From Candidatus Saccharimonadota bacterium (GTDB lineage Bacteria > Patescibacteriota > Saccharimonadia > Saccharimonadales > Saccharimonadaceae): a stretch of DNA of 32,000 nucleotides. Both the position numbers and the translations under genes were made by a program. The notes beneath the pieces were generated by a model. That model was not told where the DNA came from. It saw only the letters and a list, made by a program, of their open reading frames with translations, and made no database searches. The DNA lies in the NCBI GenBank assembly GCA_016700015.1, contig CP064995.1, positions 840,001 through 872,000 of the forward strand, in the 5' to 3' direction. Shown here in pieces: positions 6,160 to 28,336 of the stretch (position 1 is its first letter; each line of letters begins with the position of its first letter).

Positions 6160-6250
6160 GGAGAGGTGTCTGAGTGGTTGAAGGTGCCGCTCTCGAAAAG
6201 CGGTGTGCGGTTTTCCCGTACCGGGAGTTCGAATCTCCCCCTCTCCGCCA
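6160..6250 (+). tRNA. tRNA-Ser (anticodon CGA), CCA encoded
   Basis: Acceptor GGAGAGG/CCTCTCC. Anticodon stem CCGCT/AGCGG with loop CTCGAAA. Long variable arm, T-loop GGGAGTTCGAATCTCCC, and terminal GCCA. Confidence 0.9.
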
Positions 6251-7236: not shown

Positions 7237-7281
7237 TACCAAAGAAAATAGAGGTAACAATGACCTCTATTTTCTCTGGTA
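7237..7281 (-). terminator. Hairpin that includes the tRNA-Arg 3' ACCA end
   Basis: ACCAAAGAAAATAGAGGT (7238-7255) pairs with ACCTCTATTTTCTCTGGT (7263-7280). There is one G-U position and a 7-nt loop. No U tract follows on the minus strand. Confidence 0.55.
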
Positions 7282-7353
7282 CACCCGGTACGATTCGAAC
7301 GTGCGACCTTTGGCTCCGCAAGCCAACGCTCTATCCAGCTGAGCTACGGGTGC
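7277..7353 (-). tRNA. tRNA-Arg (anticodon GCG), CCA encoded
   Basis: The reverse complement reads GCACCCG TA GCTCAGCTGGATAGAGC G TTGGC TTGCGGA GCCAA AGGTC GCACG TTCGAAT CGTAC CGGGTGT ACCA. This is an Arg-type D arm with anticodon loop TTGCGGA. It has one C-A mismatch in the T stem and a G1-U72 pair. Confidence 0.85.
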
Positions 7354-8333: not shown

Positions 8334-8426
8334 GGAGGAGTACCCAAGTGGCTGAAGGGGACGGTTTGCTAAATCGTTAGTATGGGGAGACCTGTAGCGG
8401 GAGTTCGAATCTCCCCTCCTCCGCCA
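8334..8426 (+). tRNA. tRNA-Ser (anticodon GCU), CCA encoded
   Basis: Acceptor GGAGGAG/CTCCTCC. Anticodon stem ACGGT/ATCGT with loop TTGCTAA. Long variable arm, T-loop GGGAGTTCGAATCTCCC, and terminal GCCA. Confidence 0.9.
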
Positions 8427-8600: not shown

Positions 8601-9017
8601 ATGAAACGATCCATAAAATTATTTACAAGCTATGTCGTAGCCGCTTTTAGCGTACTCGCACTTGATGTTGCACAGGCTCACGCCGTGGGCACTATATCCG
8701 ATGGTGCCGGCTCGGCGCGCGGTAAAGATCAGCCCATCGATCTCTTTGGTGATGTCGGCGTGTTTTCAAAAATCAGTAGTGTTCTGTTGTTTATCGTCGG
8801 CGCTATCGCGGTAATTATGATTGTGATCGGCGGCCTTCGCTACGTGGTGTCGGGTGGCGATGCCAGTCAGGTCCAATCTGCAAAAAACACTATCCTCTAT
8901 GCGCTTGTCGGTGTAATTGTGGCTATTTTGGCCTACGCAGCCGTCAATTTTGTTATTGGTAGTTTTGTACCAACTACAAGCACCGGCTCAAGCTCCTACG
9001 GCGCATCAACGCGGTAG
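8601..9017 (+). CDS. VirB2/TrbC-like T4SS pilin paralog P1 (satellite copy)
   Basis: Signal peptide ending AQAHA, then the conserved two-helix core shared with the 12.1-14.5 kb paralogs (LLFIVGAIAVIMIVIGGLRYVVSGGDASQVQSAKNTILYALVGVIVAILAYAAVNFV). The C-terminal tail is Ser/Thr-rich. SD GGAGAGA lies at 8587-8593. Confidence 0.75.
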   Translation: MKRSIKLFTSYVVAAFSVLALDVAQAHAVGTISDGAGSARGKDQPIDLFGDVGVFSKISSVLLFIVGAIAVIMIVIGGLRYVVSGGDASQVQSAKNTILYALVGVIVAILAYAAVNFVIGSFVPTTSTGSSSYGASTR

Positions 9018-10376
9018 TTGTCTTTCTAACAACATATATCCGTTATCCTTTACCCGTGTCTGCCAGCCATCGTCAATCAGGTGTTTGGTTATGCTGCCCT
9101 TTTCGGCGCCAAGAAAGCAGCTGATACGGAAGGCGTTAAACTGTTCTTTTCGGTACTGTTCATCTTTAATAATACGCTCATACTCCGCAAAATAGTCTTT
9201 GCCATTTAGCCGCCAACTGGGCATGCGTCCATCAATAAATACTTTTTGGTTTGGGGCACGCCATATGAGGTAGCCGCCATCATTGTAATCGTTAAACAAG
9301 TTGCCAGTACAGGGGCGAGTAACAAGCGACTGGGCAGCCACCCGGGGATATGCTGACTCGGGGTCAAGCCGAATGTGTTGAAGCCCGTCATAGGCAAGAG
9401 TGGTGACAGCTAGGGCTACCACTGTAATACCGAGGCCAGCAATCCGTTTGTCATCGAGCAACTTCCAGAACGAGCTGGACCTCCCCATAGACTGCAAAAT
9501 AACCGGTAGGCTTGCAAGGGCAAACAGCGGAATATGCCGGGATGCGCTCAGTACAAGCAGTAGTGTGACTGTGTCGAAATGAACAAATGCCCGCCAGCTA
9601 CTTTGCTTGCCTGCTACAGCGCGAGCGACTACCCATAGCCCCACCAGTATTCCCAGCCCTATTTCGAGCTGGAACGACTCCCATTCCCCGATACGGCTAT
9701 GGAGCGCTGTGTCGCCTGCGGTGCGAAATACTTCGGTATAGAGTTCGGTGCCATAAGGGTTGATTAATGTCACCATGCAAGCAACGAGCAGCAATAAAAA
9801 TGTATGCCAGCTTTGATGTTTTAGCCAACAAAACCCAAGATACACGAGTCCGACAATAAATGAACCGTGCATGTTTGCCCATAGCAGCATGAGCGGAAGT
9901 GCCCACACCCAGCGTACTTTTTTTGATTGTCGCATCACAACCATAAGCAGCGCAAGCAGAAATACTGTCCAGGCAGCTGCTCGTACACCGGCGAACGGTA
10001 GTGCTACCAAGGCCGCCAACACCAATAGCGTTTTGTATCGATAAGGCGCAGCTACTAACCAAAATGCAGCCGCCCATAGGACCGCATACACGACAGAGAG
10101 CCCGGTATAGCCAGTAAAGTTATAGATAAGGAAGTTGGCAACATCGGCTAGCCATTCGTGGTGGATCCAGGGGAAACCCGCTGCGGTGTAGGTGAAAATA
10201 TCTGTTTTTGGTATGCCATGTTCGAAGATATATCGACCGGAGGTAATGTGCCAGCCGAAGTCCGGGTCGATGGTAAATCGAGATTTGAGGAAAAATAACA
10301 AAAAGAGAAGGAGAAAGACGACTCGACCGTCGAGCCGGGCAAGCCAATAGAAAAATTGCTTTGGTGAGCGCCTCAT
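9006..10376 (-). CDS. Polytopic membrane protein, GT-C-like (putative glycosyltransferase)
   Basis: The ORF is trimmed to the ATG at 10376 (MRRSPKQFF...). It has more than 10 hydrophobic helices, an early loop motif DPDFGWHITSGRYI...GIPKTDIFTYT...HHEWL, and a soluble C-terminal domain. The functional call is tentative. Confidence 0.55.
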   Translation of the reverse strand: MRRSPKQFFYWLARLDGRVVFLLLFLLFFLKSRFTIDPDFGWHITSGRYIFEHGIPKTDIFTYTAAGFPWIHHEWLADVANFLIYNFTGYTGLSVVYAVLWAAAFWLVAAPYRYKTLLVLAALVALPFAGVRAAAWTVFLLALLMVVMRQSKKVRWVWALPLMLLWANMHGSFIVGLVYLGFCWLKHQSWHTFLLLLVACMVTLINPYGTELYTEVFRTAGDTALHSRIGEWESFQLEIGLGILVGLWVVARAVAGKQSSWRAFVHFDTVTLLLVLSASRHIPLFALASLPVILQSMGRSSSFWKLLDDKRIAGLGITVVALAVTTLAYDGLQHIRLDPESAYPRVAAQSLVTRPCTGNLFNDYNDGGYLIWRAPNQKVFIDGRMPSWRLNGKDYFAEYERIIKDEQYRKEQFNAFRISCFLGAEKGSITKHLIDDGWQTRVKDNGYMLLERQLPR

Positions 10377-10570
10377 TTTATTTACTATACACGGCCAAGC
10401 AAAACGACCCAGCTTGAAGAGGGTGGGGTCGCCTGTGTGTGGGCGAGATGTCGCTATCACTCCTCCGCTTGTTTGAAAAATGAGCAAGCTCCTTTTTCGG
10501 CACTGCGCTCCGCCGAACTCGCGGTTGTCCGCCAAGTGGCGGACCCGCGAGCACGTATCTGCGCCTATTC

Positions 10571-10612
10571 CGCCAGACAAAGCGACCCCTTTCGGGGTCG
10601 CTTTGTCTGGCG
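10571..10612 (-). terminator. Hairpin that includes the tRNA-Ser(UGA) 3' CGCCA end
   Basis: CGCCAGACAAAGCGACCCC (10571-10589) and GGGGTCGCTTTGTCTGGCG (10594-10612) are exact reverse complements. The loop is GAAA on the transcribed strand. No U tract follows. Confidence 0.6.
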
Positions 10613-10695
10613 GAGAGGGCGAGATTCGAACTCGCGGTGAGTTGCCCCACGACGGTTTTCAAGACCGTTACCATCAACCACTCGGTCACCTCTCC
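10608..10695 (-). tRNA. tRNA-Ser (anticodon UGA), CCA encoded
   Basis: The reverse complement reads GGAGAGGTGACCGAGTGGTTGATGGTAACGGTCTTGAAAACCGTCGTGGGGCAACTCACCGCGAGTTCGAATCTCGCCCTCTCCGCCA. Anticodon loop CTTGAAA and a long variable arm. Confidence 0.9.
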
Positions 10696-10727
10696 ATGGT
10701 AACTCCGAAATTATACCAGTAGTGGGG

Positions 10728-11417
10728 TCATTTTTCCAGAGGTTGGCGGGCGAGAACAACTAGCCAAACGTCTGTCGCGCCCGCTTCGCGCAGTTTCCGT
10801 GCCGCGTACTGTGCCGTTGCGCCAGTTGTAAGCACGTCGTCCACTAGTAGATATGTCTTTGGTACACACGCCTGGGAATTAAATGCTTGTTTTGCCTGTT
10901 CAATGCGCAGTTTACGTGAAGCGCCTTGCTGCCGCGCTGATGTTCGGCGAGATAATACGGCTCGGTAGGTTAATCCACGACGCTTTGCGAACTCCTGTGC
11001 AAGCAGCGCTGTATGGTCATAGCCACGTTGACGGATATGAGCGCTCACCGTCGCAACCGGTGTCACAATACAATCGGCAGGCAGAACTGGCAGGGTCTGG
11101 TCGAGTAACTCGGCCATAACTCGATATGCTTCCTTACTCCTGTTGAACTTGTAGGCATGGATAACTGCTTCCAGCGCCGCCCGCTTTTCGCCGAGGCACC
11201 ATGCCCTTGAATAGGCGACACGATGGGACGAACAGACACCATATCTCCACCCTTCCACACCCCCACACAGTACGCAGGCACTAAATCCATCACTTTCGAT
11301 GTCATATTTACAATATTCACACAAAATAGCTCCAATGCTGCCGCAAGAGCGACAGTAGTGGGGAGCAAGCATGTCCGAAAGCCGTCGAAGCATTGTATTT
11401 TTTACGTTCGCAAGCAT
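10728..11417 (-). CDS. comFC: ComF-family protein (phosphoribosyltransferase-domain competence protein)
   Basis: N-terminal Cys-rich zinc-finger region (CRSCG...CEYC...CVLCGG) and a C-terminal PRTase motif (YLLVDDVLTTGAT), as in ComFC/GntX. Confidence 0.8.
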   Translation of the reverse strand: MLANVKNTMLRRLSDMLAPHYCRSCGSIGAILCEYCKYDIESDGFSACVLCGGVEGWRYGVCSSHRVAYSRAWCLGEKRAALEAVIHAYKFNRSKEAYRVMAELLDQTLPVLPADCIVTPVATVSAHIRQRGYDHTALLAQEFAKRRGLTYRAVLSRRTSARQQGASRKLRIEQAKQAFNSQACVPKTYLLVDDVLTTGATAQYAARKLREAGATDVWLVVLARQPLEK

Positions 11418-11424
11418 TGTTTTA

Positions 11425-11453
11425 TTGATTATACCGCAACCGTTAGCTATAAT
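11425..11453 (+). promoter_or_regulatory. Sigma70-like promoter TTGATT-17-TATAAT for hsp20
   Basis: TTGATT (11425-11430), a 17-nt spacer, and TATAAT (11448-11453), about 45 nt upstream of the hsp20 ATG. A minus-strand TATAAT (11428-11433), 10 nt before the comF ATG, overlaps it. Confidence 0.65.
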
Positions 11454-11500
11454 GTATCCAGACTAATTGTCAACATGCCAATGAGAAAGTGGAGGATATC

Positions 11501-11974
11501 ATGGCCCGTAAACAGAATGACGATCTGTTGATCGAAGACGAACTCGCTGCTGCGTTTCTAAACGATGACAGTATGGCAGACGATCAAACATCTGCACCAC
11601 AACCACAAGTAGCTGACGATGCGAACTGGGGCGAAGCTGAAGACGACTTCCCAGGTCAGTTAGCGGTAGACGTATACGAAACCGATGACCAATTGGTTGT
11701 CAAGGCTCGTACTGCCGGCGTGAACAAAGAAGACCTCGATGTCAGCATCAGCGACGGTATTCTAACCATCAGCGGCACGCTCAGCAGCGGTGACGACTCG
11801 GTCGCTACCAACTGGCACATCCAGGAATGCTACTGGGGCGAATTTAGCCGCACACTTGCGCTACCCGTACCAGTAAAGGAAGACGAAGTAGCGGCTGTCC
11901 TAAAGGACGGCGTACTCACCATCAACTTTAGCAAAATTAGGCAAGAACAAGCCAAGAAGATCCCTATTCAGTAG
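11501..11974 (+). CDS. Hsp20/alpha-crystallin family small heat-shock protein
   Basis: Alpha-crystallin domain (LAVDVYETDDQLVVKARTAGVNKEDLDVSISDGILTISG...GEFSRTLALPVPV...AVLKDGVLTINFSK). ATG at 11501 follows SD GGAGGA (11491-11496). The N-terminal extension is acidic. Confidence 0.88.
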   Translation: MARKQNDDLLIEDELAAAFLNDDSMADDQTSAPQPQVADDANWGEAEDDFPGQLAVDVYETDDQLVVKARTAGVNKEDLDVSISDGILTISGTLSSGDDSVATNWHIQECYWGEFSRTLALPVPVKEDEVAAVLKDGVLTINFSKIRQEQAKKIPIQ

Positions 11975-12056
11975 GGATTATCTGTACTAAACAGTCAATA
12001 CCGTCTTTAGGGGCGGTATTTTCGTAAGAAGTATGGAAGATCCAAGACGCATAAAA

Positions 12057-12085
12057 ATATACCGGCGCTTAAAGCGCCGGTATAT
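12057..12085. terminator. Bidirectional terminator hairpin between hsp20 and pilin P2
   Basis: Perfect 29-nt palindrome ATATACCGGCGCTTAAAGCGCCGGTATAT between two convergent genes, flanked by A/T-rich sequence. Confidence 0.7.
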
Positions 12086-12103
12086 GGTTTGAGTCAGTCG
12101 ACA

Positions 12104-12529
12104 CTATACCGCGTTGTCTTTGTTTGCAAAGCTACTTATGACAAAGTTGACGGCTGCGTAAGCAAGGATCGCAACAACAAGCCCAATGATTGCGTAAAGA
12201 ATTGTGTTCTTCGCAGAGGTGACTGCTGAGCTATCGCCTTGCGATACGGTGTAGCGAATACCACCGATGATCAGCATAACAACCGAGACCGCGCCGATAA
12301 TGAACAATAAGACATTGGTGACAGTTTGGAAGATACCACCAGTGCCAAAGAGGCTATCTGGCTGGTCCTCACTTTTTGCGCATGATGCCGATTGGCTAAG
12401 GCTGAGGTTGGCGGCATTACAGTCGACAGCAGCGACCGCAACTGCAGACGAAACCGTCACACAAAGGCCAAGCATCACGAGCGGTGCAGTCACAGCTGAC
12501 CGAATCCGCATCTTGAGAGTACTATTCAT
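12104..12529 (-). CDS. VirB2/TrbC-like T4SS pilin paralog P2
   Basis: Signal peptide, a Cys pair in the mature N-terminus (VDCNAANLSLSQSASCAK), and the core LLFIIGAVSVVMLIIGGIRYTVSQGDSSAVTSAKNTILYAIIGLVVAILAYAAVNFV. It has its own promoter, an SD (AGGAAAGGAA) and a terminator. Confidence 0.8.
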   Translation of the reverse strand: MNSTLKMRIRSAVTAPLVMLGLCVTVSSAVAVAAVDCNAANLSLSQSASCAKSEDQPDSLFGTGGIFQTVTNVLLFIIGAVSVVMLIIGGIRYTVSQGDSSAVTSAKNTILYAIIGLVVAILAYAAVNFVISSFANKDNAV

Positions 12530-12572
12530 TTTTTGGTTCCTTTCCTAATTACTGGAATTACTCTTGACTCTA

Positions 12573-12601
12573 TATATACCAGATAACACGCCGGTTGTTA
12601 A
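12573..12601 (-). promoter_or_regulatory. Sigma70-like promoter TTAACA-17-TATATA for pilin P2
   Basis: Minus-strand TTAACA (12596-12601), a 17-nt spacer and TATATA (12573-12578), in the 75-nt gap between P3 and P2. Confidence 0.55.
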
Positions 12602-12604
12602 CTG

Positions 12605-12979
12605 TTATTTAGTAAAATTGTCTACCACAAAGTTAACAATGGCGTAGGCCATAATAGCGACGACCAGTCCAATGACAGCATAGAGTATGGTATTTTTCGC
12701 CCCTGTAACCGCGCTCGTGTCGCCGTTTGATACAGTATAGCGAATGCCGCCGATAACAATCATAACGACAGCAATGGCGCCAAGAATAGTGAGAAGTACA
12801 TTAACTATTGTTTTCACAAATGAACTAACGGATTTTGTATTGCCTCCTGGATTTGTCGCATTGACCGATTCTTTGAGACAATTTGCCGGAGTGTCGCAGG
12901 CCGCATAGGCAGGCACTGCCACAAGACTAATTCCTAGCGCCATCAGTAGGGCAGTAAAGATAGGTTTGATGTTTCGCAT
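12605..12979 (-). CDS. VirB2/TrbC-like T4SS pilin paralog P3
   Basis: Signal peptide ending AYA, Cys pair (ACDTPANC), and the core LLTILGAIAVVMIVIGGIRYTVSNGDTSAVTGAKNTILYAVIGLVVAIMAYAIVNFV. SD AAGGAGAA lies upstream. Confidence 0.8.
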   Translation of the reverse strand: MRNIKPIFTALLMALGISLVAVPAYAACDTPANCLKESVNATNPGGNTKSVSSFVKTIVNVLLTILGAIAVVMIVIGGIRYTVSNGDTSAVTGAKNTILYAVIGLVVAIMAYAIVNFVVDNFTK

Positions 12980-12988
12980 AGTTTCTCC

Positions 12989-13360
12989 TTATCCAAAAAA
13001 TTTGGTTACTAATAGCACGACCGCTTGGCCGATAAGCGCAACAACGAGACCAATAACCGCATAGAGTATCGTGTCCTTTGCTGATTTTGTCCCACTTGAA
13101 TCGCCGCCCGATACCGCATACTTGATGCCGCCGATAACAATCATTAATACCGATACAAGACCCAGTATACCAGTTGCTACACGTATGGCTTGCCAAACAC
13201 CGCTTGCCCCATTGGCATAATCGAGCTTATTGTCTTTGACCACATTACAGCTTGAGTCAGTACAGTTCTTAAACAAATCAATGGCCGCAACGGGAGGGGC
13301 AATAACAAGACCGGTCACACTCATTGTGGCAAGAACCAGGGCAGTGCACAGTCGCTTCAT
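12989..13360 (-). CDS. VirB2/TrbC-like T4SS pilin paralog P4
   Basis: Signal peptide, Cys pair (NCTDSSC), and the core GLVSVLMIVIGGIKYAVSGGDSSGTKSAKDTILYAVIGLVVALIGQAVV. The start is coupled to the P5 stop (TAA-T-ATG). Confidence 0.78.
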   Translation of the reverse strand: MKRLCTALVLATMSVTGLVIAPPVAAIDLFKNCTDSSCNVVKDNKLDYANGASGVWQAIRVATGILGLVSVLMIVIGGIKYAVSGGDSSGTKSAKDTILYAVIGLVVALIGQAVVLLVTKFFG

Positions 13361-13361
13361 A

Positions 13362-13652
13362 TTAAAACCCCCCTAGAACTATATTTGTAATGGTGAATGC
13401 ACTAAGAATAACAATCAGTCCTACTGCGGCGCCAATCACTGCATTACGGGCACGAGTTACTTGCTGAGGATTGCCGTTCGAAGTAACAAACAAATAACCC
13501 GCCACTAAAATAACGATGATGGCAATAACCCCGCCCCAGAAGTAAACTGGCATCAAAATATTTTTTATAATGCCAGTGTCAGACTTCGGCCCCGTAAAAG
13601 AGACGTCATTTGTATTTAAAAGTGCTGCAAATTGATAAAGATAAGGTTTCAT
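13362..13652 (-). CDS. Divergent VirB2-like two-helix protein P5
   Basis: 96 aa with no obvious cleavable signal and no Cys. It has the same helix-loop-helix layout (VIAIIVILVAGYLFVTSNGNPQQVTRARNAVIGAAVGLIVILSAF) and is tightly coupled to its neighbours. Confidence 0.65.
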   Translation of the reverse strand: MKPYLYQFAALLNTNDVSFTGPKSDTGIIKNILMPVYFWGGVIAIIVILVAGYLFVTSNGNPQQVTRARNAVIGAAVGLIVILSAFTITNIVLGGF

Positions 13653-13653
13653 G

Positions 13654-14082
13654 CTATTTAATTACTCCTGCGACAGCGTTAACGATAGAAGCGGCAAGCA
13701 GAGAGATTACCATGCCGATGAGCGCGTTTGTAATTGTTTTCTTGGCACTCGACATTCCTTCTGGTGAGCCAGCAGCCGTAATGTATCCGAATCCACCCTT
13801 TATAATGAAAAATATTGTGACGTATGCCACGACGACCAGTAGTGCCTGAATAACATTGAGTGCAATTTTTAGAATTAGCTGACCAATGTCAGGCTTGCCA
13901 TTGCTCTCAGGTGCTTTGAAATTGCACGATCCGTCCTGCATGCCTTTATACCACGCTGGAATCATAAACACCGTATCAGTACATGCCGCTCGAGCGGGAG
14001 TCGATAACACAGTGGCAGTACCAACTGAGGTAAAGGCCATCCCAAGTATAATGATGACACTCGCGAATACATTCCGAATCAT
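13654..14082 (-). CDS. VirB2/TrbC-like T4SS pilin paralog P6
   Basis: Signal peptide ending ARA, Cys pair (ACTDTV...GSCNF), and the core LLVVVAYVTIFFIIKGGFGYITAAGSPEGMSSAKKTITNALIGMVISLLAASIVN. There is a 4-nt ATGA overlap with P7. Confidence 0.72.
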   Translation of the reverse strand: MIRNVFASVIIILGMAFTSVGTATVLSTPARAACTDTVFMIPAWYKGMQDGSCNFKAPESNGKPDIGQLILKIALNVIQALLVVVAYVTIFFIIKGGFGYITAAGSPEGMSSAKKTITNALIGMVISLLAASIVNAVAGVIK

Positions 14083-14543
14083 CCTATTACTCCCCCCGGC
14101 ACCAACCAGTTAAGTGCAAGTACCATGAGGGAATAGGCGATAATTCCGATAACAGTGTCGGTAATAAGCTTTTTCGACTTGGTAACCTGTTCTTGGCCGC
14201 CACCAGCACTTGAATACAATATTCCTGCGTACACCAGTGTGCCAACTGCGGCGATCCCTATACCCACACTCAGAAGTTGCAATACCCACTTGAGAATCAT
14301 GAAAATCCCCGTTGATTTGGCGTCAGTAGATGTGCTTGATGATGTCGAACATATCCAATCAGGTAAAATAGCACATTTGCCCTTTGCTTTGTCGTCGGGG
14401 ACCGAGCCGTTTGCTGTCGTGGTTGTTGCCGGAGTTGTTGTGGGAGTTGTTTCGGCAGCTACCGACACGGGAATCGTGGTCGTTGAGACGATGGCAAATG
14501 CTGCAATAGAGACAGTGGTAATAATTATTTTTTTTATCATCAT
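14079..14543 (-). CDS. VirB2/TrbC-like T4SS pilin paralog P7 with a Thr/Pro-rich linker
   Basis: The ORF is trimmed to ATGATG at 14543 (MMIKKIIITT...). It has a signal peptide, a TTPTTTPATTTT linker, a Cys pair (KCAILPDWIC) and the core SVGIGIAAVGTLVYAGILYSSAGGGQEQVTKSKKLITDTVIGIIAYSLMVLALN. Confidence 0.7.
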   Translation of the reverse strand: MMIKKIIITTVSIAAFAIVSTTTIPVSVAAETTPTTTPATTTTANGSVPDDKAKGKCAILPDWICSTSSSTSTDAKSTGIFMILKWVLQLLSVGIGIAAVGTLVYAGILYSSAGGGQEQVTKSKKLITDTVIGIIAYSLMVLALNWLVPGGVIG

Positions 14544-14631
14544 ACTTCTTCTTCTAGTACATAGTGTAGCGGTAATGGCTAGTATATGCAAAGCTATTGT
14601 ACCAACAGATGTAAAAAATACCTTATGTCCA

Positions 14632-14660
14632 TTGACTTTTTTAGCCAAAAATGGTAGTAT
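14632..14660 (+). promoter_or_regulatory. Sigma70-like promoter TTGACT-17-TAGTAT for the first VirB6-like gene
   Basis: TTGACT (14632-14637), a 17-nt spacer, and TAGTAT (14655-14660) preceded by TGG. Only 9 nt separate the -10 box from the ATG at 14670. Confidence 0.6.
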
Positions 14661-14669
14661 TGAAACGAT

Positions 14670-17600
14670 ATGTGGGAACTGCGCAAACAGCTTCCGCACG
14701 GTAGAATATCCGTGCGGCGTGTTTCTCTGTTCGCCAGCCTATTGGTGCTGGCATTTTTCACGCAACTCACGCTATTTTCAAACACGGCGCTAGCGGCTGA
14801 TGTCACACGGACTGGTGACTCAGTTGCGTATGGTGGTAACACTTATGGGCTCGCAATAAATGCCGACATTCCTGCCGGACTACCCGCTGGCACTTCTGGG
14901 TACGTTTACCGTGACAGCGGGACTGGAACTGCCTCGTTTATCTTGACTAGTGGTGATGCTGCAAAAGCGACCACTGGTCAATATGTCGTTTATCCGCTCA
15001 ATCCCGATGGCTCATTGGCCGGCGCACCAAGGGCACCTCCTGTAAGTGTTTCAATTGCCGATACTGCACCAAATTCGCTCGCAAGCACCACCAAAGGGGC
15101 ATCGAGCTGTGACGGCTCTCTTACTGGCGGAGCTGGTTGGATTATTTGTCCAGTCACTAACTTCTTGGCGAATCGTATGGATGACCTCTATAAGATCCTG
15201 ACTAGCTTCCTTGAGGTTCGCCCCGTCCAGTCCAACCCGAACAGCTCACTTTACCGCATGTGGGCAATCGTTCGTGATATTGCCAATATCTGCTTTGTGA
15301 TTGTGTTCCTCGTCATCGTCTACTCGCAAGTCACCAGCATGGGAATTAGCAACTACAATCTCAAGCGTATGCTGCCGCGACTTATTATTGGTGCAATTCT
15401 TGTGAATACCTCATTTTGGATTGTTGCACTAGGCGTTGATCTCTCAAACATTCTTGGCTACTCTGTTTACGATCTCATGATGGGGGTCCAGCGTAGTCTG
15501 GCGGGTGCAGGGCAATACAATACCACAGTACCAACCTGGCAGGTTATTACTGCGTATGTTCTCTCGGGTGGCGGGGCGGCTGTCGGCCTTACTGCTGCGG
15601 TGATTGGTGCTGGCGGTTTTGGTGCCGCGCTAACACTACTCATTCCCACCATTTTGATGGTATTCCTCGGTGCGCTCGCGGCCGTAGCTATATTGGCGGC
15701 ACGACAGGCACTCATTACCGTCTGTATCATCATCGCCCCGCTAGCATTTGTGGCCTATGTACTCCCAAGCACCGAAAAGTGGTTCGGGAAATGGAAAGAT
15801 CTTCTGACCACCATGCTAGTCATGTTCCCTATGTTTTCACTTATATTTGCCGGTGCTCAGCTAGCCGGCCTTGCCATTATTCAAAACGCCACCTCAATCG
15901 TGCAAGTAATTATCGGCATGGCGGTACAGGTCGCCCCTGTCGTGGTGACACCGATGCTTATCAAGCTTAGTGGCTCACTACTTGGCAAAATTGCTGGTAT
16001 TATCAACAACCCCAATCGCGGACTGATTGATCGCACGCGCAACTGGTCAAAAGACCGTGCTGCACTGCACGCTGCTCGCGTACGCGCAGGGCAAGAGCGT
16101 ACTAGGGTATTCAACCGTAACCCCGTCAACCGCGCCGTCCGTAGCCGTGATATGGCTCGCCGTCGCCGCGAAGGATTAAAGAGTGCTTATGAAGCCCAAG
16201 CGGCCAATGACTTTACCGAGCGCGATAATCGTCGCTACCGCAACAGCGAGCAAAGTATCGAAGCCATGACTCGCCGCACCGCTGTACGTAAACAGCAGAT
16301 CGAAAACAACTTTGGCCGCACTGCCGTGGCTCAGCGGCTTGAGTTTGATAAACGCATGACAGAAGCCGACAAGGTAGATGTCGAAAATACATTTAGCCGA
16401 ACCCACCTAGGCCATAGCGCCGAGATGCGCACACGCCACGTACACGACCAAAAGAAAGTTATCGAGGCTGAGCACGAGAACGATTACCTTGTTAGCGCCA
16501 ACGGCCGCACAAATCAGCTCGAAATTCGTCACCTTCAAGATCGTAAAAAGATTATCGACTCCGATCAGGGTTATGACTATGCAATCAGTCAGCGTGGTCG
16601 AGACAATGAACTTCATATAAGGGGTCAGGAAAATCGTGAATCTGGGCGCAAAGCCCGTGCAGACAGGCACTTTTCTGAACTGACTTCTGGTAATTCAACC
16701 GATGGCTACTATGGTGATTTTGCTACGAATGGCCACCTACAGGTCCAGGGGCAAGCGCTTTCCGCTAATCTTAAAGAGGTAAGCGTACAAGTGTCTCTCG
16801 ACAATATGGCCAAACGCAACGCCGAGTTTGCGCTGCAAAGCGACATCGCAAAAACAATCGAGAGTAGTGCGACGCACCTCAATCTCGGCGGCATGACTGC
16901 TCGGGCATACGCATCGGGCGTCGCCGGCACACAGGGCGAAGCCTCAGCACTTGCAAGCGCCAGGTCGACTGCCCGTGAGCAATTTGGTAAATTCAGCGCC
17001 GAGTACGAAGAGCTGCGCAATCAGTACATGCCACCAATCGGTGATGTTAAAGAATTTTTGCGCGGCAACCAGAATCTCCAATTCAAAGACGAGAGCGGCA
17101 ACGTGGTGCTCGAAGTTGACGGCAGCAACATGTATGCGGTCAATGCCATGGTCAAGCATATTACTAGTGTTGGTATTGTCGACGAAGTTGATGAGATGAT
17201 TAAACTATCCGGTAAGGGTCAGCCCCTTCATGACTACCGCGAAACAATCGCCGATGTACTGGCCCAGAAGGGCTATGGCGGCCGCAGTATCTACGAAGGT
17301 GGGCAGGTTATTGAGCGAGTTCGACAGGGCGAAATATCATCAGAAACCGACCTGCTTGAGCATATTCAAGAACAGACCGCAAAGGGTAAGGTTTCGCCTG
17401 CCGACCTCGCTACGATGGACGCCGTCGCAATTGGACGCTTTATCAGCTCTATCAAGCACAACCGTCGAGCCGGCAGCACCAATGACGCCGGTATAGCCGT
17501 AAACGACCTTGGTCCCACCTATCTCGAAGAGGTGGCGAAGTTAGTCGAGAGCGCCCACGATGCCCTGACCGATGATCGTCTAAAGGGTACGGTAAAGGGC

Positions 17601-17720
17601 AACGCCAAGATACAGCTCTACAAACTTGAGCACGCCTACCGTACGCTACCAAAGAACACTCTGGGCGATATTGATCTAAGTGGTCTCAGCCTCCACCAAA
17701 TCCAGAGCCTGTTGCCATAG
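14670..17720 (+). CDS. Giant VirB6/TrbL-like polytopic membrane protein, paralog A (1016 aa)
   Basis: Signal peptide, a ~150-aa ectodomain, the GWIICPV motif (15135-15155), and about 6 TM helices (residues ~195-440). The ~575-aa C-terminal extension is basic and holds tandem ~30-aa repeats. The TM core is strongly similar to the 18792..21602 product. The VirB6 assignment rests on topology and context, not on a recognised signature. A GTG start near 14712 is an alternative. Confidence 0.6.
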   Translation: MWELRKQLPHGRISVRRVSLFASLLVLAFFTQLTLFSNTALAADVTRTGDSVAYGGNTYGLAINADIPAGLPAGTSGYVYRDSGTGTASFILTSGDAAKATTGQYVVYPLNPDGSLAGAPRAPPVSVSIADTAPNSLASTTKGASSCDGSLTGGAGWIICPVTNFLANRMDDLYKILTSFLEVRPVQSNPNSSLYRMWAIVRDIANICFVIVFLVIVYSQVTSMGISNYNLKRMLPRLIIGAILVNTSFWIVALGVDLSNILGYSVYDLMMGVQRSLAGAGQYNTTVPTWQVITAYVLSGGGAAVGLTAAVIGAGGFGAALTLLIPTILMVFLGALAAVAILAARQALITVCIIIAPLAFVAYVLPSTEKWFGKWKDLLTTMLVMFPMFSLIFAGAQLAGLAIIQNATSIVQVIIGMAVQVAPVVVTPMLIKLSGSLLGKIAGIINNPNRGLIDRTRNWSKDRAALHAARVRAGQERTRVFNRNPVNRAVRSRDMARRRREGLKSAYEAQAANDFTERDNRRYRNSEQSIEAMTRRTAVRKQQIENNFGRTAVAQRLEFDKRMTEADKVDVENTFSRTHLGHSAEMRTRHVHDQKKVIEAEHENDYLVSANGRTNQLEIRHLQDRKKIIDSDQGYDYAISQRGRDNELHIRGQENRESGRKARADRHFSELTSGNSTDGYYGDFATNGHLQVQGQALSANLKEVSVQVSLDNMAKRNAEFALQSDIAKTIESSATHLNLGGMTARAYASGVAGTQGEASALASARSTAREQFGKFSAEYEELRNQYMPPIGDVKEFLRGNQNLQFKDESGNVVLEVDGSNMYAVNAMVKHITSVGIVDEVDEMIKLSGKGQPLHDYRETIADVLAQKGYGGRSIYEGGQVIERVRQGEISSETDLLEHIQEQTAKGKVSPADLATMDAVAIGRFISSIKHNRRAGSTNDAGIAVNDLGPTYLEEVAKLVESAHDALTDDRLKGTVKGNAKIQLYKLEHAYRTLPKNTLGDIDLSGLSLHQIQSLLP
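16182..16679 (+). repeat. Five to six degenerate tandem ~30-aa repeats inside the paralog A C-terminal extension
   Basis: Protein-level periodicity, for example GHSAEMRTRHVHDQKKVIEAEHENDYLVSAN / GRTNQLEIRHLQDRKKIIDSDQGYDYAISQR / GRDNELHIRGQENRESGRKARADRHFSELTS. Weaker copies precede them (EQSIEAMTRRTAVRKQQIENNFGRTAVAQ, RLEFDKRMTEADKVDVENTFSRTHL). Confidence 0.55.
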
Positions 17721-17755: not shown

Positions 17756-17847
17756 GAAATTATAACCATACTCGTGTAGTAAATTACAAAGGAGAATGCA
17801 TAATTATTATGGTAAAACGTGATCCATCACCACGAAAAGGTAACTTT

Positions 17848-18720
17848 ATGAGTCGCCGCGGCTTCTTAGAGGTAGGCACACTCCTCGGCATTACGGCACT
17901 CGTATCTGCCTGTAGTCCCTCGGGCGATAAACAAGGCCCAACCCCAGCGCCAACAACCAGCTCAGCTGATAAAACTCCTGGAACAACCTCTGTGGCTACA
18001 GAATCAGGAACAAAGACTCCTGAAACAGGTGCTCGTGCAGTTCGCAATGCGACGATAGACAAGCTTGAACATAGCGACCTCTACGCTTCACTTAGTCCCG
18101 AAATGAAAAATAAATTCCAGTATCTTCACGATATGGATCTTACTCACTTTGAGCAGCAGCCCCTACAAGATCGCCTAGCCTATGCTCAGTTTGTGTACGA
18201 TACATACCATGACATGATGAAAGCGCAGGTCATTGCGCGTAAGGGCACCTGGGAAGAACATAGTACTAACCCTGATTCATGGTACGAACCAACCATTCCT
18301 TCCGCAGATGATACCGCCAAGAAAATAGTGGTTCAGCATTCCGACACGATGGCAACGTGTGTCTATGCAATCGCTCAAGCAAGTAATGGTCCTTCCAGCC
18401 CAAGGGTTGAATCCAAAGTTCTAGACGCTCAAAAATGTTCCGTACTCTTCAATGCAGACCCATCTATGCCTCAATACCGCAGATTTGTTAATGAAATCGC
18501 TAGCCAGGCAGATGTTACTAAAGATAATGATGGCTACATCGCACTCTCACCTGATGATGGTTTCAAAACCGCCAAAGTCGTTAGTGGTATGCCAACGATG
18601 GAAGTCCGGATGGACTACCTTGCTGCAGGCACTACTGCAACACACAGGAAAGTTTTCTTCGAATTTACTGACCTGCTTGGTGCCAAGCGCGGCACATGGT
18701 CAAGTACTAAAATCGTATAG
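17848..18720 (+). CDS. Lipoprotein with a twin-arginine-type signal peptide, function unknown
   Basis: MSRRGFLEVGTLLGITALVSAC has a SRRxFL Tat motif and a lipobox Cys at residue 22 (17911-17913), followed by a Pro/Thr/Ser linker and a ~220-aa domain. The start is taken at 17848 (AAAAGG 7 nt upstream) rather than 17809. Confidence 0.65.
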   Translation: MSRRGFLEVGTLLGITALVSACSPSGDKQGPTPAPTTSSADKTPGTTSVATESGTKTPETGARAVRNATIDKLEHSDLYASLSPEMKNKFQYLHDMDLTHFEQQPLQDRLAYAQFVYDTYHDMMKAQVIARKGTWEEHSTNPDSWYEPTIPSADDTAKKIVVQHSDTMATCVYAIAQASNGPSSPRVESKVLDAQKCSVLFNADPSMPQYRRFVNEIASQADVTKDNDGYIALSPDDGFKTAKVVSGMPTMEVRMDYLAAGTTATHRKVFFEFTDLLGAKRGTWSSTKIV

Positions 18721-18791: not shown

Positions 18792-21602
18792 ATGATAAAC
18801 GTAAGTATGATAGGTATTCGACTGCGAGCATGGGCATTAGCCGTAATACTTGTTGCATCAATTGTAGCTGGTCTGTTGAATAGTACATCGGTTTCGGCAG
18901 CAGGCGAGAAATACCAGTATGACCTGTTAGAGCGAAGCAAAGCATACGTTTGGGGAAGCTGGTTAGTAGCTTGCTATACAGGTATGTCGGGGTTTGATAT
19001 GAGCTCTAGTGGCGCAGGAGATGGTACGATTTATGCAAAACTTACCGGTAAGTCATTCAATCTAAACCCTATCCTCAGCCCCGATATCATAACGCCAAAC
19101 TGTAACGATAGCAACAAGATCAAGCAAGCACTCGACTATTTTGGCATCAGCACTTACGACTTTATCTGTGATATCCTCGGTGGTCAGCGCCACAACGGAG
19201 CTGACTGTAAAGACACGGGCAGTACTGCAGACTGGACAATACCTACACCTGATGGGACTAAGGTAAAAAATGGAATGGTATCAAAAGTTGGCTTTGATGT
19301 GTTTAACGTAATTGATGCGCAGCGTTATGTGTTTTTCCGTCAAACGTTTATTGCTGGCTGCGAGGTAAAAGATCCTGCCGGCACAGCTTTGAGTGCAATT
19401 ACCAACCCCAGCGACGCCGCCGTTGGAGATTTGCGCTACCAAATAAAATCTCCAAATGCCGATGCAAGCGCACTTGAACCATATGTTTTTAATACAGGCA
19501 AGGGTGGTAAGGTAAATATATCGTTTGTTGCAAAGACCAATCCAGTAGGGTTTAGTAGTGAGTATAATTGTGAGACCTTGGCTAAGAATGCCAATGACTA
19601 CGCCGATGCGTATCTTAAGTTTTTAAAAACATTACCTACTTGTGATAATCAATATCAGAGAGATGGTGTAGACGTAATCGCCGCTTGTCAGTACGGATTC
19701 AGCCAAAAAGGTTCAGGCGACCCCATCCAAATATGTGCCACTAAGTATCCGGCCCCAGATGGTCCTGGCGGTCCCAGCTATAGCCGTGATCCGCGACAAA
19801 AAGCATTTTATGATGCTTGTTATTGGGGAGCAACGAGTGCTTATGCGGCCAGCCTTAGTGGTGCTGTGACGCTACAAGATGGCGCGAAGGGTAATCAGGG
19901 CAATGTAGCTGCTAAGTCAACCTGCGGTATCACCGGTGTCGGCTGGATTATTTGCCCTGTTATGACATTTCTTTCGGAAGTAATGGACAACACCTTCAAG
20001 TTCCTCGCCGATAGTTTCTTGTCGACAGACCCAGAGGTGTTTAAAATTGGTTCGCCCACGCAAAAAGCCTGGTCAATATTTCTAAGCTACGCCAATGTTG
20101 GTTTTGTCATTGCTTTTATGATTATTATTTATTCGCAGATCACAAGTGCCGGTATTAGCAATTACGGTATCAAGAAAATGCTGCCAAAACTAATTGTTAG
20201 TGCAATATTGGTCAATATTTCGTATTATTTATGCCAAGCGGCGATCGATCTGAGTAATGTGCTTGGCTATAGTATTATGAATTTATTTAGTGCTATTGCA
20301 AAAGACCCGTCAATCGCTAGTTCGACTGCTGCTACGCTTAACTGGAATGGTACAATTACCGCTATTTTGGCTGGTGGTGCTGCCATAGGATTGCTCGTTG
20401 CTGTCGGCGGTACATTTTTACTGGCAGCACTTTTAGCTGCCGCAACAGTGGTACTTATTTTACTGGCGCGCAAGGCACTTCTTATTTTGCTTGTTGTGCT
20501 GGCGCCGCTAGCGTTTGTCGCCTATTTATTACCAAACACTTCGAGCTTATTCACAAAATGGCGCAAAATGTTCACTTCGCTACTGCTTGTTTTTCCGATC
20601 GTCGCCTTACTGTTTGGTGCTAGCAAGCTTGCAGCTGCAATTATATCTTCGTCCGACCCAAGCAATACTGTGGCTCAGCTGATGGCGCTCGCCATAGCCG
20701 TGATTCCGTTGTTTGCAGTAGTGCCACTTCTTAAAGGCGCAGTGAATGCCATTCCGGTAGTTGGTAGCAAATTGCAGGGCTGGGGAAACAAGGCAACTGG
20801 ACGAGCTAGTGCTGCCGGGAAAAAGGGGCTGGGTGATGCCTATCAAAACTCAACGCTCGGTCGCTATAACAAATATAAAGCTGGGGAAAAATCAAAACGA
20901 AACTCTCTAATACAGGCCGGGGTCTATAAAGGGAAGGGTGGTGTATTCAACCCCCGCAATCTACGCTCTAAATCCAGGAATCGATTTAATAACTCTTGGG
21001 TAAGTGGTGGTTTCGGTGACAAAACTGCTGCTGCAGGAGCGGCGGCGGCAAGCAAAATCGAGCAAGAAGAGGTTGATAACGAAGTAACAAAAATGGGTAA
21101 GAGCTTTAATGGTCCAGATCAAGAGCTCAAGGAGGCTACCGATGCTTACAATGCGGCGCTTCATTCGGGAGATGTAGTGCGTGCACGTGCAGCACAAAAA
21201 ATATTGCTTAGTAAGGGGTCTGCGGGCGTACAGGCAATCCGGGATGTTGTAGGTGGAAAGAAAGACTCAGCAGGCAACGAAATATACAAAGGACTAAGTG
21301 GTATAAAGAATGGTGCCGTCTCATACGCTCGAAGCGACCTAGCTTCTGCTGGCATAAAAGGGAAAGATGCTGGCTTAAATACCTGGAGCTACGACGATAA
21401 GAATCGAGATCTGGCAGATGTTGATGCTAGTGCCAGTACGTATACTGGGCTTACCGATAGTGAACTTGCCGGCCAAAGTGCAGCTGTTCTACGAGCAGCG
21501 GTGGCCGCAGGGCACATTGACCGTGCGCGCCGAGATGCAATGCTTGCAAACCAAACAATTGAGGCGCAGTTGTCTGAAGACAAGAAGGCCATACTACGAT
21601 AA
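18792..21602 (+). CDS. Giant VirB6/TrbL-like polytopic membrane protein, paralog B (936 aa)
   Basis: Signal peptide and a ~380-aa ectodomain with 12 Cys. GWIICPV motif at 19941-19961. The TM core is collinear with paralog A (MLPKLIVSAILVNISYY...IDLSNVLGYS, LAPLAFVAYLLPNT). The C-terminal extension is Lys/Gly/Ala-rich. An alternative start is the ATG at 18807. Confidence 0.6.
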   Translation: MINVSMIGIRLRAWALAVILVASIVAGLLNSTSVSAAGEKYQYDLLERSKAYVWGSWLVACYTGMSGFDMSSSGAGDGTIYAKLTGKSFNLNPILSPDIITPNCNDSNKIKQALDYFGISTYDFICDILGGQRHNGADCKDTGSTADWTIPTPDGTKVKNGMVSKVGFDVFNVIDAQRYVFFRQTFIAGCEVKDPAGTALSAITNPSDAAVGDLRYQIKSPNADASALEPYVFNTGKGGKVNISFVAKTNPVGFSSEYNCETLAKNANDYADAYLKFLKTLPTCDNQYQRDGVDVIAACQYGFSQKGSGDPIQICATKYPAPDGPGGPSYSRDPRQKAFYDACYWGATSAYAASLSGAVTLQDGAKGNQGNVAAKSTCGITGVGWIICPVMTFLSEVMDNTFKFLADSFLSTDPEVFKIGSPTQKAWSIFLSYANVGFVIAFMIIIYSQITSAGISNYGIKKMLPKLIVSAILVNISYYLCQAAIDLSNVLGYSIMNLFSAIAKDPSIASSTAATLNWNGTITAILAGGAAIGLLVAVGGTFLLAALLAAATVVLILLARKALLILLVVLAPLAFVAYLLPNTSSLFTKWRKMFTSLLLVFPIVALLFGASKLAAAIISSSDPSNTVAQLMALAIAVIPLFAVVPLLKGAVNAIPVVGSKLQGWGNKATGRASAAGKKGLGDAYQNSTLGRYNKYKAGEKSKRNSLIQAGVYKGKGGVFNPRNLRSKSRNRFNNSWVSGGFGDKTAAAGAAAASKIEQEEVDNEVTKMGKSFNGPDQELKEATDAYNAALHSGDVVRARAAQKILLSKGSAGVQAIRDVVGGKKDSAGNEIYKGLSGIKNGAVSYARSDLASAGIKGKDAGLNTWSYDDKNRDLADVDASASTYTGLTDSELAGQSAAVLRAAVAAGHIDRARRDAMLANQTIEAQLSEDKKAILR

Positions 21603-21620: not shown

Positions 21621-22640
21621 ATGGCAGTCTATAAAGTAGCCCAAGACGTAGAAGCCGACGACAAGCTCATTGGCCCGTTTAGCTTTCGGCAATTTGTATA
21701 CCTGATTATTGTTGCGCTGGCGATTGCTCTTGCGTGGGGGCTCAGTCGGCTGTTCATCGGGCTTATTGTTATACCCATGCCGATTATTCTGTTTTTCGGC
21801 GCACTGGCGTTACCGCTACGCAAAGATCAGCCAATGGAGATCTATATGGCGGCCATCGTATCGTTTTATCTGAAGCCACGCAGGCGCCTGTGGATACCAG
21901 ATGGAGTTGAGTCCCTAGTTGAAATTACTGCACCAAAAGTCATCGAAGTGCAGCGTGTAAAGGACATTTCACAAACAGAGGCCGAGCGCCGGCTCGGCTA
22001 TCTGGCCGATATTGCCGATACCCAGGGATGGGCCGTGCGGCATGTGGCACAACCGGCGGGCAGTTCTATGGTAACTGACGCTTTCTACGCCGCCCAGCAG
22101 ACCGAGGACATTCTCGACGAAAGCGGCGGACTAGCTTCGAGTATCGACACTATGATGGCACACGCCGACGAGCGTCATCGCCAAGAAGTTGTCGAACGCA
22201 TGAAAAACCCAGCCCCCACTGCTCCGCAACCAGCCCCAGTTGTTGACCCTATGGCTACTACTCCCATACCCGCAACCAGTGCGATGAATGATCCGCTAGC
22301 AGCTCAGTATGCTACTAGTTTTAGTTCTCCTGTCGCTCAACAGCCCACCGCCGATGACATAGCAGCCCTTCAATACAATCCGTATCCGACAGAAATTCAC
22401 CAGATGGTTATCAATCCACTCGAACCAGCTGAGGCACTCGTAGCGTCAGCGCCAACCGTGCCCATACAACAGCCAAACAATAACACGACAAGCACTAGCG
22501 AAACTACTGTCTCACCTGATATAATTAATCTTGCAACTAATCCCGATTTATCTATCGAGACAATTTCGCGTGAAGCGGCGAGGATCCAGAAAAAAGCCGA
22601 CGAAGACGCAGGTGAAGAGGTCTTTATCTCACTCCACTAG
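21621..22640 (+). CDS. PrgI/VirB3-like small membrane component with a long Pro/Ala/Thr-rich tail
   Basis: The N-terminus VAQDVEADDKLIGPFSFRQFVYLIIVALAIALAWGL..., followed by a second TM helix, is the PrgI-family layout. The gene sits immediately upstream of VirB4, as in Gram-positive T4SS loci. Confidence 0.6.
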   Translation: MAVYKVAQDVEADDKLIGPFSFRQFVYLIIVALAIALAWGLSRLFIGLIVIPMPIILFFGALALPLRKDQPMEIYMAAIVSFYLKPRRRLWIPDGVESLVEITAPKVIEVQRVKDISQTEAERRLGYLADIADTQGWAVRHVAQPAGSSMVTDAFYAAQQTEDILDESGGLASSIDTMMAHADERHRQEVVERMKNPAPTAPQPAPVVDPMATTPIPATSAMNDPLAAQYATSFSSPVAQQPTADDIAALQYNPYPTEIHQMVINPLEPAEALVASAPTVPIQQPNNNTTSTSETTVSPDIINLATNPDLSIETISREAARIQKKADEDAGEEVFISLH

Positions 22641-28329: not shown

Positions 28330-28336
28330 AAATATT

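Follow-up and report, generated by a model that had tools for sequence, protein, structure and literature searches.

In a 32,000-nucleotide stretch of DNA from a Candidatus Saccharimonadota bacterium (contig CP064995.1, positions 840,001 to 872,000, hereafter the window), seven paralogous genes for VirB2-like pilins, six of them in tandem and the seventh at some distance, lie beside genes of a type IV secretion system (T4SS). I consider it somewhat better than an even chance (a probability of about 0.55) that these seven, P1 to P7, constitute a fixed, non-interchangeable pilin set of a chromosomal monoderm T4SS, related to mating-pair formation type FATA (MPF-FATA), and that they assemble into a heteromeric filament or conduit. 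Such a fixed machine is favoured over a repertoire of antigens because the gene order is fixed, because orthologs are found position by position in other loci, because the sequences are under purifying selection, and because the counterparts of the six tandem genes in Southlakia epibionticum ML1 (Wang et al. 2023, Cell) score as essential.

The epibiotic growth of Saccharibacteria needs the T4SS, the function of which reviews describe as unknown (PMC11665869, PMC12857230), and no feature of this system is more unusual than the pilin array. The multi-pilin array, the VirB2-like nature of its products and their essentiality are already published (PMC10633639; PMC12102498; PMC12857230). Added here are the positional orthology, a conserved pattern of cysteine pairs, the purifying selection and a promoter-like element specific to P2, an increment over the published work in detail and not in kind. 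The working hypothesis moves away from a repertoire of variable antigens and towards a machine of several subunits, and the P2-type gene as a candidate for the shaft (SEML1_0019 in ML1), the P7- and P6-type genes as candidates for the tip, and the cysteine pairs as mutational handles are entry points for experiments.

The seven genes and their counterparts in related loci

An earlier note on this stretch had described seven paralogs with a shared two-helix core, and an open reading frame (ORF) check of the window located all seven exactly where that note had placed them. They are listed here with their class and their score against the Pfam family PF18895.

8601-9017, plus strand: P1, distal pilin (class D), 34.5 bits
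12104-12529, minus strand: P2, last tandem pilin (class T6), 38.8 bits
12605-12979, minus strand: P3 (class T5), 44.0 bits
12989-13360, minus strand: P4 (class T4), 33.9 bits
13362-13652, minus strand: P5 (class T3), the shortest copy, 38.8 bits
13654-14082, minus strand: P6 (class T2), 31.8 bits
14079-14543, minus strand: P7, first tandem pilin (class T1), with the most divergent core, 20.1 bits

The longest ORF of P7 begins with a GTG at 14699; since its orthologs begin at the Met of MMIKK or MIKK, 14543 is the likely start. From P7 to P3 the tandem genes follow each other with a 4-nt overlap and then gaps of 1, 1 and 9 nt, and a spacer of 75 nt lies upstream of P2. The common core of the seven, about 70 residues long, consists of a helix, the motif GG(I/L)(R/K)Y...GD...AK(N/D)T(I)L and a second helix, and in an alignment of the seven the cores of the other six are 52, 45, 42, 31, 24 and 24% identical to that of P1. 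A hidden Markov model (HMM) of the seven, run against the six-frame ORFs of the window, found no eighth copy. The signal peptides that the earlier note had presumed are borne out for six of the seven, which have a leader of the n/h/AxA type, and P5 is without a signal-peptide-like h-region. In P1 the signal peptide ends in AHA as the probable cleavage motif, a conserved DQPxDLFG..G.F motif precedes helix 1, and the C-terminal tail is rich in Ser and Thr. The linker that had been noticed in P7 is indeed there, as a Thr/Pro TTPTTTPATTTT stretch ahead of the loop C-AILPDWI-C. This linker (residues ~31-45) is not kept in the related species L083, whose ortholog has a shorter VDSTAAPSAS, and the P7 gene differs by two indels from that of the near-identical strain L080.

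A search for related loci queried with P3, P2, P1 and P4 returned 79, nearly all of them from metagenome-assembled genomes of Saccharibacteria or Saccharimonadia, which makes 80 with the window. An HMM scan of their six-frame ORFs yields 518 pilins with a median of seven per locus, so that a seven-member set, which the earlier note had regarded as unusual, is the norm in Saccharibacteria. The copy number is nearly constant at 6-8, and the loci with few copies tend to be on short or truncated contigs. According to a best-hit classification the tandem order is almost everywhere P7-P6-P5-(P4 or P3-like)-P3-P2, with a gap of 60-160 nt ahead of the last tandem gene, and the P1-type gene, present as class D in 35 loci, is found 1.3-8 kb from the array.

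The complete six-gene run is present in 59 of the 80 loci, and within these 59 the closest match to a pilin in another locus came from the same position 366 times out of 389. The identity of the core between proteins at the same position is 0.51-0.72, as against 0.39 between paralogs of one locus, and it is highest (0.72) in the P2 class T6 jointly with the P1 class D. Classes T1, T2 and T3 (P7, P6 and P5) are deeply distinct, with core identities of 0.24-0.40 to all others (0.24-0.27 in the case of T1), and T4, T5, T6 and D (P4, P3, P2 and P1) make up one subgroup at 0.47-0.63. The synteny with VirB6-like genes is constant in these 59 loci, and genes of the VirB3 and VirB4 types follow in L083. 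These comparisons indicate that the paralogs are ancient and not the outcome of a recent expansion.

The presumably exposed segment that links the signal peptide to helix 1 is the part which the earlier note had called hypervariable. This description is apt for the ancient paralogs and fails for orthologs. In L083, where P3 is 83% identical and the synonymous divergence (dS) ranges from 1.3 to >2, identity within the segment amounts to 100% for P1, 91% for P2, 90% for P3, 77% for P6, 73% for P7, 66% for P4 and 61% for P5, and P1 as a whole is 91% identical. Neighbouring proteins compare with L083 at 62% (the RlmH-type SPOUT protein), 64% (ComF-like) and 56% (VirB6-like), and the fastest-evolving parts of the pilins are their signal peptides. 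As dS is saturated or undefined (>1.3) for both L083 and the locus L001, only identities and nonsynonymous divergence (dN) are used for these two, and the ratio of nonsynonymous to synonymous differences per site (pN/pS) was taken from L080, a strain 97.9% identical in nucleotide sequence. This ratio is 0.10 for the segments, 0.08 for the cores, 0.13 for the leaders and 0.11 for the neighbouring genes; the P2 protein is 100% identical in L080 despite 11 synonymous differences. The segments thus evolve fast on deep timescales, yet purifying selection acts on them and nothing points to diversifying selection.

The synonymous divergence from L080 is mosaic (window 10600-16200): pS is 0.19 in P7, 0.135 in P3 and 0.10 in P2, and low in P6 (0.028), in P5 (0.014) and in the ComF-like gene (0 of 170 sites), the neighbours lying between 0 and 0.06. 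This suggests that pilin alleles have recombined or that the assembly is a chimera.

The syntenic region of S. epibionticum ML1 has the same layout, with FemAB, ValRS, RlmH, HIT, a distal pilin, a membrane protein, a tRNA-Ser, a ComF-like gene, Hsp20, six pilins and T4SS genes. In both genomes the six tandem pilins are divergent from a large VirB6-like gene, the seventh is on the opposite strand and overlaps with its 3' end the gene for a membrane protein of ~460-520 aa, and the third tandem gene is the shortest (312 bp in ML1, 291 bp in the window). ML1 is another species, and the correspondence of the window genes to SEML1_0014-0019 and SEML1_0024 is based on gene order and context, on gene lengths and on the annotated families; data on essentiality come from ML1 alone. 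In its transposon sequencing (Tn-seq), the tandem pilins SEML1_0014-0019 were called GD/ES/ES (growth-defective/essential), SEML1_0019, the counterpart of P2, being essential and the distal SEML1_0024 non-essential (PMC10633639, Table S1).

Arrays of the kind that the window holds were seen differently by Quinonero-Coronel and co-workers (2025, Microb Genom, PMC12102498), who described 441 of them, each with 2-11 VirB2-like genes, from 383 assemblies of Patescibacteria, abundant in Saccharimonadia and with low identity between members, and who saw in them tandem amplification and variation with proposed antigenic or host-range roles. Read in this way, the paralogs would be interchangeable major pilins that diversify the tip, for evasion of immunity or phages or for host range, as proposed for the VirB2 arrays of Anaplasma and Bartonella. 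The Rickettsiales arrays cited in that paper are thought to vary antigenically; those of Anaplasma, Bartonella and Rickettsia also hold several VirB2 paralogs in one system, and the likeness is a functional analogy only. In favour of such diversification, the exposed segment is almost wholly different between paralogs, class-wide it is far less kept than the core (0-35% against 26-69% of positions kept in at least 70% of orthologs), and the mosaic pS of P2, P3 and P7 (0.10-0.19) could reflect allele exchange. However, order and positional orthology are fixed across the 59 loci, the pN/pS of the segments is low, those of P1, P2 and P3 are 90-100% identical to L083 at saturated dS, and all six tandem genes score as essential in ML1, with the copy number nearly constant at 6-8. 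I therefore regard antigenic diversification, or alternative tips for different hosts, which were two of the three ideas in the earlier note, as improbable, and its third idea, a heteropolymeric or otherwise non-redundant set, as the one favoured by the fixed order, the orthology and the Tn-seq of ML1. In contrast to the published picture of amplification and variation, the Saccharibacteria display fixed order, positional orthology, purifying selection and a position-specific cysteine pattern. Disulfides and orthologs are not mentioned in the main text of PMC12102498, where the word cysteine refers only to a VirB1 domain; the cysteine pair, disulfides and positional orthology are not mentioned in PMC10633639 either, and a literature search on these topics returned nothing relevant.

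Cysteine pairs in the exported segments

Ahead of helix 1 and after the signal peptide, the pilins P2, P3, P4, P6 and P7 have exactly two cysteines each and P1 and P5 have none, as the earlier note had counted. The pair of P2 is C37...C50; in P3 the loop C28-DTPAN-C34 follows immediately on the AYA cleavage motif, in P4 the loop is C33-TDSS-C38, and in P6 the cysteines C34 and C53 enclose 18 residues with a conserved IPAW motif, both the cysteines and the motif being kept among the non-redundant orthologs of that class. One further cysteine is located inside the signal peptide of each of P2 and P4, and that of P4 is replaced by Arg in the 97.9% identical strain. A lipoprotein reading of the sequences AYA-AC and ARA-AC was rejected on inspection, as Tyr or Arg at -3 does not fit a lipobox.

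Among the 518 homologs of the 80 loci, 186 segments have no cysteine, 11 have one, 288 have two, three have three and 16 have four. A binomial model expects 167 proteins with a single cysteine, far from the 11 seen, and when the proteins are clustered at 70% identity, clusters with an even number above zero outnumber those with an odd one by 213 to six, a pattern that chance does not come near to explaining. The cysteine-bracketed segment of the earlier note is both real and conserved. Cysteine makes up 0.033 of the residues of the segments, 0.0009 of those of the cores and 0.0095 of those of the long ORFs in the same loci, and the loop sizes are mostly 4-22 residues. The counts by position, covering the 59 loci with a complete run (35 loci for class D), are as follows.

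T1 (P7): two cysteines in 49 of 59, four in 8 of 59
T2 (P6): two in 57 of 59
T3 (P5): none in 56 of 59; signal-peptide-like h-region absent in 49 of 59
T4 (P4): two in 54 of 59
T5 (P3): mixed, none in 29, one in 10, two in 20
T6 (P2): mixed, two in 41, none in 18
D (P1): none in 34 of 35

Some of the single cysteines in T5 are probably caused by the segment-boundary heuristic, which clips a cysteine located right after the cleavage site. A bias towards even numbers of cysteines in an exported segment is a classical signature of disulfides, and this parity suggests that the pairs form disulfides.

About ten loci have seven tandem genes, with an extra first gene encoding a protein of 340-500 aa with a P7-type core (L019:2834-4342, L020:6941-8137, L030:6668-7702, L038:2950-4317, L041:6944-8248, L044:7536-8684, L053:1176-2312, L056:7181-8461, L062:7001-8272 and L078:1610-2857). 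The ectodomain of these proteins, fused to the pilin core, has 14-22 cysteines, always an even number, and Pfam recognises in them the pilin core alone, the ectodomain being without a match. A possible role for such a protein is that of an adhesin carried by a pilin scaffold. The fusion of cysteine-rich ectodomains to a P7-type core also argues for an outward orientation of the N-terminus.

Family assignment and proposed assembly

PF18895 (T4SS_pilin, gathering cut-off 26.6 bits) is the top Pfam match of all seven proteins, and P1-P6 score above the cut-off; membership of this family is solid. P7 reaches E=3e-25 against a family HMM that started from the paralogs of the window and was iterated over the matches in the related loci. 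Near full length, P3 also matches PF04956 (TrbC/VirB2) with 28.0 bits at a cut-off of 27.9 (E=2.7e-6), P5 reaches 19.0 bits, and the Pfam search gave no PF04956 match for the other five. Their features are those of the family, namely a signal peptide (absent from P5), a pair of long hydrophobic helices and, between these, a short basic loop that carries R/K residues. In an AlphaFold2 model of P3, made from a 74-sequence alignment, the helices, each of roughly 33 residues, span positions 51-83 and 88-122 around a 4-residue turn with a predicted local distance difference test (pLDDT) of >90, and the cysteine loop is in a region of low confidence. P3 has 2769 homologs, the nearest of which include 'pilin [Candidatus Saccharimonas sp.]', and a tblastn of P3 against 72,556 plasmids gave no match at E<=1. 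The earlier note's identification of VirB2-like T4SS pilins thus agrees with PF18895 in P1-P6, with PF04956 in P3 and with the neighbouring VirB3, VirB4, VirB6-like and hydrolase genes, although homology to the classical VirB2 is a reading that draws on the Pfam TrbC match and the gene context. Diderm VirB2/TrbC loci usually hold a single copy that lacks a cysteine pair in its N-terminal part.

The NCBIfam model NF045849 (Mbov_0395, a pilin-like conjugal transfer protein of the Mycoplasma integrative and conjugative element (ICE); cut-off 40 bits) matches the two-helix core of P1-P6, although it is a much shorter protein of 80 model residues and P1-P4 and P6 stay under the cut-off, P3 with 34.7 bits and P1, P2, P4 and P6 with 22-26 bits; for P7 the NCBIfam search gave no match to it. 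P5, leaderless and cysteine-free, is the only paralog to reach the cut-off (40.6 bits). Taken together with a preprint on the enterococcal PrgF (see below), this hints at a descent of the family from monoderm T4SSs and not at the co-option from diderms suggested in PMC12102498.

Sub-threshold Pfam matches to TctB, DctQ and DUF6112, some automated JGI names such as 'exporter of polyketide antibiotics' and an unspecific fold search could be taken to mean that chance has brought together small membrane hairpins of a generic kind, such as holin-like or YggT-like proteins or fragments of transporters, which have no relation to the T4SS. I find this hardly credible, as PF18895 is the top match for all seven and above its cut-off in six, the array is syntenic with VirB6-like genes in 59 loci and with VirB3- and VirB4-type genes in L083, and it is co-essential with T4SS genes in ML1. 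PF18895 and the synteny effectively exclude the generic hairpins that had been named in the earlier note as a possible refutation.

I propose the following course for the assembly of the set. P1-P4, P6 and P7 would be exported by Sec and cleaved after a site of the AxA type, and P5 would be inserted without a cleaved leader. In the membrane the two helices would form a hairpin, the short positive loop (R/K-Y...AK) being cytoplasmic and both termini outside, and the hairpins would then be pulled from the membrane onto a VirB6/TrbL-like platform, by analogy with VirB2 and VirB6 of R388 and with PrgF and PrgH of pCF10. The resulting polymer may be a tube or conduit through the cell wall, its lumen lined by the loop, with the N-terminal 30-60 residues outside, held by a putative disulfide each in five of the seven. 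PrgF, the VirB2-like protein of the Enterococcus plasmid pCF10, is essential for conjugation and was modelled as a pilus standing on a pentamer of the VirB6-like PrgH; in this model the loop lines the lumen and the termini face outwards (ter Beek et al. 2025, bioRxiv 10.64898/2025.12.18.695078). The likeness to pCF10 is one of architecture and gene setting, both being monoderm T4SSs with a small protein of two transmembrane helices near a VirB6-like gene; however, pCF10 relies on a single functional VirB2-like protein, where the window encodes a fixed seven together with a pair of giant VirB6-like proteins.

The best candidate for a subunit required in large amounts is P2: it is the last of the tandem genes, its core is highly conserved, and it has a promoter-like element and a strong terminator of its own. 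These two elements are:

12573-12601, minus strand: conserved promoter-like element in the P3-P2 spacer, TTAACA (12601-12596), N17, TATATA (12578-12573)
12057-12085, minus strand: intrinsic-terminator-like hairpin after P2, at the end of the pilin operon, with a 13-bp stem and a T-run

The -10 TATATA of the window is preceded by TCTGG, an extended -10, and a AGGAAAGGAA ribosome-binding site is located downstream of the element, ahead of P2. Across the loci the T5-T6 spacer carries the motif TTAACA-N17-TATA(A/T)N with an invariant T-TG-N just 5' of the -10, and a ribosome-binding site of the GAAAGGA type follows ~30-50 nt 3' of it. The exact TTAACA-N17-TATA is found in the T5-T6 spacer of 42 of the 59 loci, in 29 distinct sequences, where shuffled sequences would lead one to expect 0.03. 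In 1.9 Mb it occurs 47 times, 42 of which are these spacers, and in the window 12573-12601 is the only match without a mismatch.

P2 may be the shaft subunit and P1 a close, dispensable paralog of it. Subunits of low abundance that initiate the structure, act as adapters or form its tip may be sought among P7, P6, P5 and P4; these are translationally coupled, P7, P6 and P5 are deeply distinct classes, and proteins of the P7 type can carry large cysteine-rich ectodomains in other lineages. A bolder version, possible and held with considerable doubt, would make this the first heteropolymeric filament of the VirB2 type, ordered and of defined stoichiometry, in which a tip of P7, P6, P5 and P4 replaces the missing VirB5 adhesin, disulfide-stapled heads touch the host, and a shaft of P2, P3 and P1 serves as an essential feeding conduit. 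Type IV pili offer a likeness in their priming set of minor pilins and in the disulfide-closed surface loop of their D-region. It is a functional analogy only, type IV pilins being of unrelated fold and machinery.

Alternatively, the paralogs may be the layers of an envelope channel only, a short stalk or stack of rings across the membrane and the thin wall at the contact with the host. T4SS pili have been observed neither on Saccharibacteria nor on any Gram-positive cell, the closest named relative outside the phylum is the pilin-like protein of the Mycoplasma ICE, from cells without a wall, and seven fixed classes fit a layered machine as well as they fit a filament. However, the two-helix architecture polymerises into tubes in every VirB2 member that has been studied and in the PrgF model, and the dedicated and strong-looking promoter of one paralog suggests that it is needed in bulk. 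I consider such a channel the less likely reading, though a plausible one.

Several observations count against the fixed heteromeric set that I prefer. P7 stays below the cut-off of PF18895. Sequence searches of the PDB with a 7-sequence and a 74-sequence profile brought up no pilin, a Foldseek search of the P3 model against the PDB found nothing at E<=0.001, and hhalign of the family alignment against VirB2 of A. fabrum (pTiC58) gave a probability of 0.5%. The assignment of major and minor roles derives from conservation and promoter logic, and no Saccharibacterium has been seen with a filament of these proteins (PMC12857230, PMC11665869). In ML1 the essentiality of the upstream genes may be due to polar effects in a tightly coupled operon, and the pilin genes, which are small, had between 11 and 15 insertions apiece in the input DNA (PMC10633639). 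As to rejected matches, a transmembrane match to MacB in the PDB sequence search (E=0.08) was taken as chance, and the top Foldseek matches are unrelated helical hairpins, a fold which cannot discriminate.

The T4SS genes and the rest of the window

The other features of the T4SS locus are listed below.

14544-14669, no strand assigned: intergenic region, by the gene layout, from which the pilin operon and the first VirB6-like gene diverge
14670-17720, plus strand: VirB6/TrbL-like polytopic protein 1, 1016 aa (ortholog in L083, 959 aa, matches PF19590 TrbL_3)
18792-21602, plus strand: VirB6/TrbL-like polytopic protein 2, 936 aa (ortholog in L083, 929 aa, matches PF19590 TrbL_3)
21621-22640, plus strand: PrgI (VirB3-like), PF12666 43.3 bits
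22674-25392, plus strand: VirB4 ATPase in two ORFs, TraG P-loop PF19044 99.6 bits, NCBIfam TrsD E=1.2e-5
28097-30295, plus strand: cell-wall hydrolase with glucosaminidase and phage-lysozyme2 domains, VirB1/PrgK-like, PF01832 109.5 bits and PF18013 79.5 bits

The promoters for both directions are presumed to be in the divergent region, where none of the promoter-like matches is individually significant. The first VirB6-like protein, presumably the assembly platform, corresponds by synteny to the essential SEML1_0013 and has no Pfam match itself, also at E<=5; the second has a faint match to TrbL (PF04610, E=0.28). In VirB4 the TrsD/TraC-like N-terminus (22674-23543) and the P-loop portion (23545-25392) are encoded by separate, adjacent ORFs, and the same split into two genes is seen in ML1 (SEML1_0009/0008), a genome reported to have no recognisable relaxase or coupling protein (PMC10633639). 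The longest ORFs of the hydrolase and of the preceding 972-aa protein (25411-28329) overlap by 233 nt, and the true start of the hydrolase is probably downstream of 28329. The 972-aa protein and those of 303 aa (17809-18720) and 473 aa (30308-31729) have no significant family match; a Pfam search relaxed to E<=5 with the 524-aa membrane protein and the 303-aa, 972-aa and VirB6-like proteins of the window returned nothing useful.

The 524-aa membrane protein just mentioned is polytopic (464-524 aa), is encoded on the minus strand at 9006-10580, convergent with P1, the 3' end of which it overlaps by 12 nt, and has no Pfam or NCBIfam match. The same convergent overlap is found in ML1 between SEML1_0023 and SEML1_0024, both non-essential. 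P1 has its Ser/Thr tail and P7 its Thr/Pro linker, and a role of the membrane protein in modifying pilins, for example by glycosylation, is possible.

Four tRNA genes, three tRNA-Ser (CGA, GCT, TGA) and a tRNA-Arg (GCG), are located at 6160-6250, 7277-7353, 8334-8426 and 10608-10695, between the housekeeping genes and the pilin array, and Rfam and ARAGORN searches of the window gave nothing beyond these four. Since the syntenic region of ML1 begins at dnaA, the window is probably close to the replication origin. The tRNA-Ser of ML1 is likewise found between the ComF-like gene and the membrane protein.

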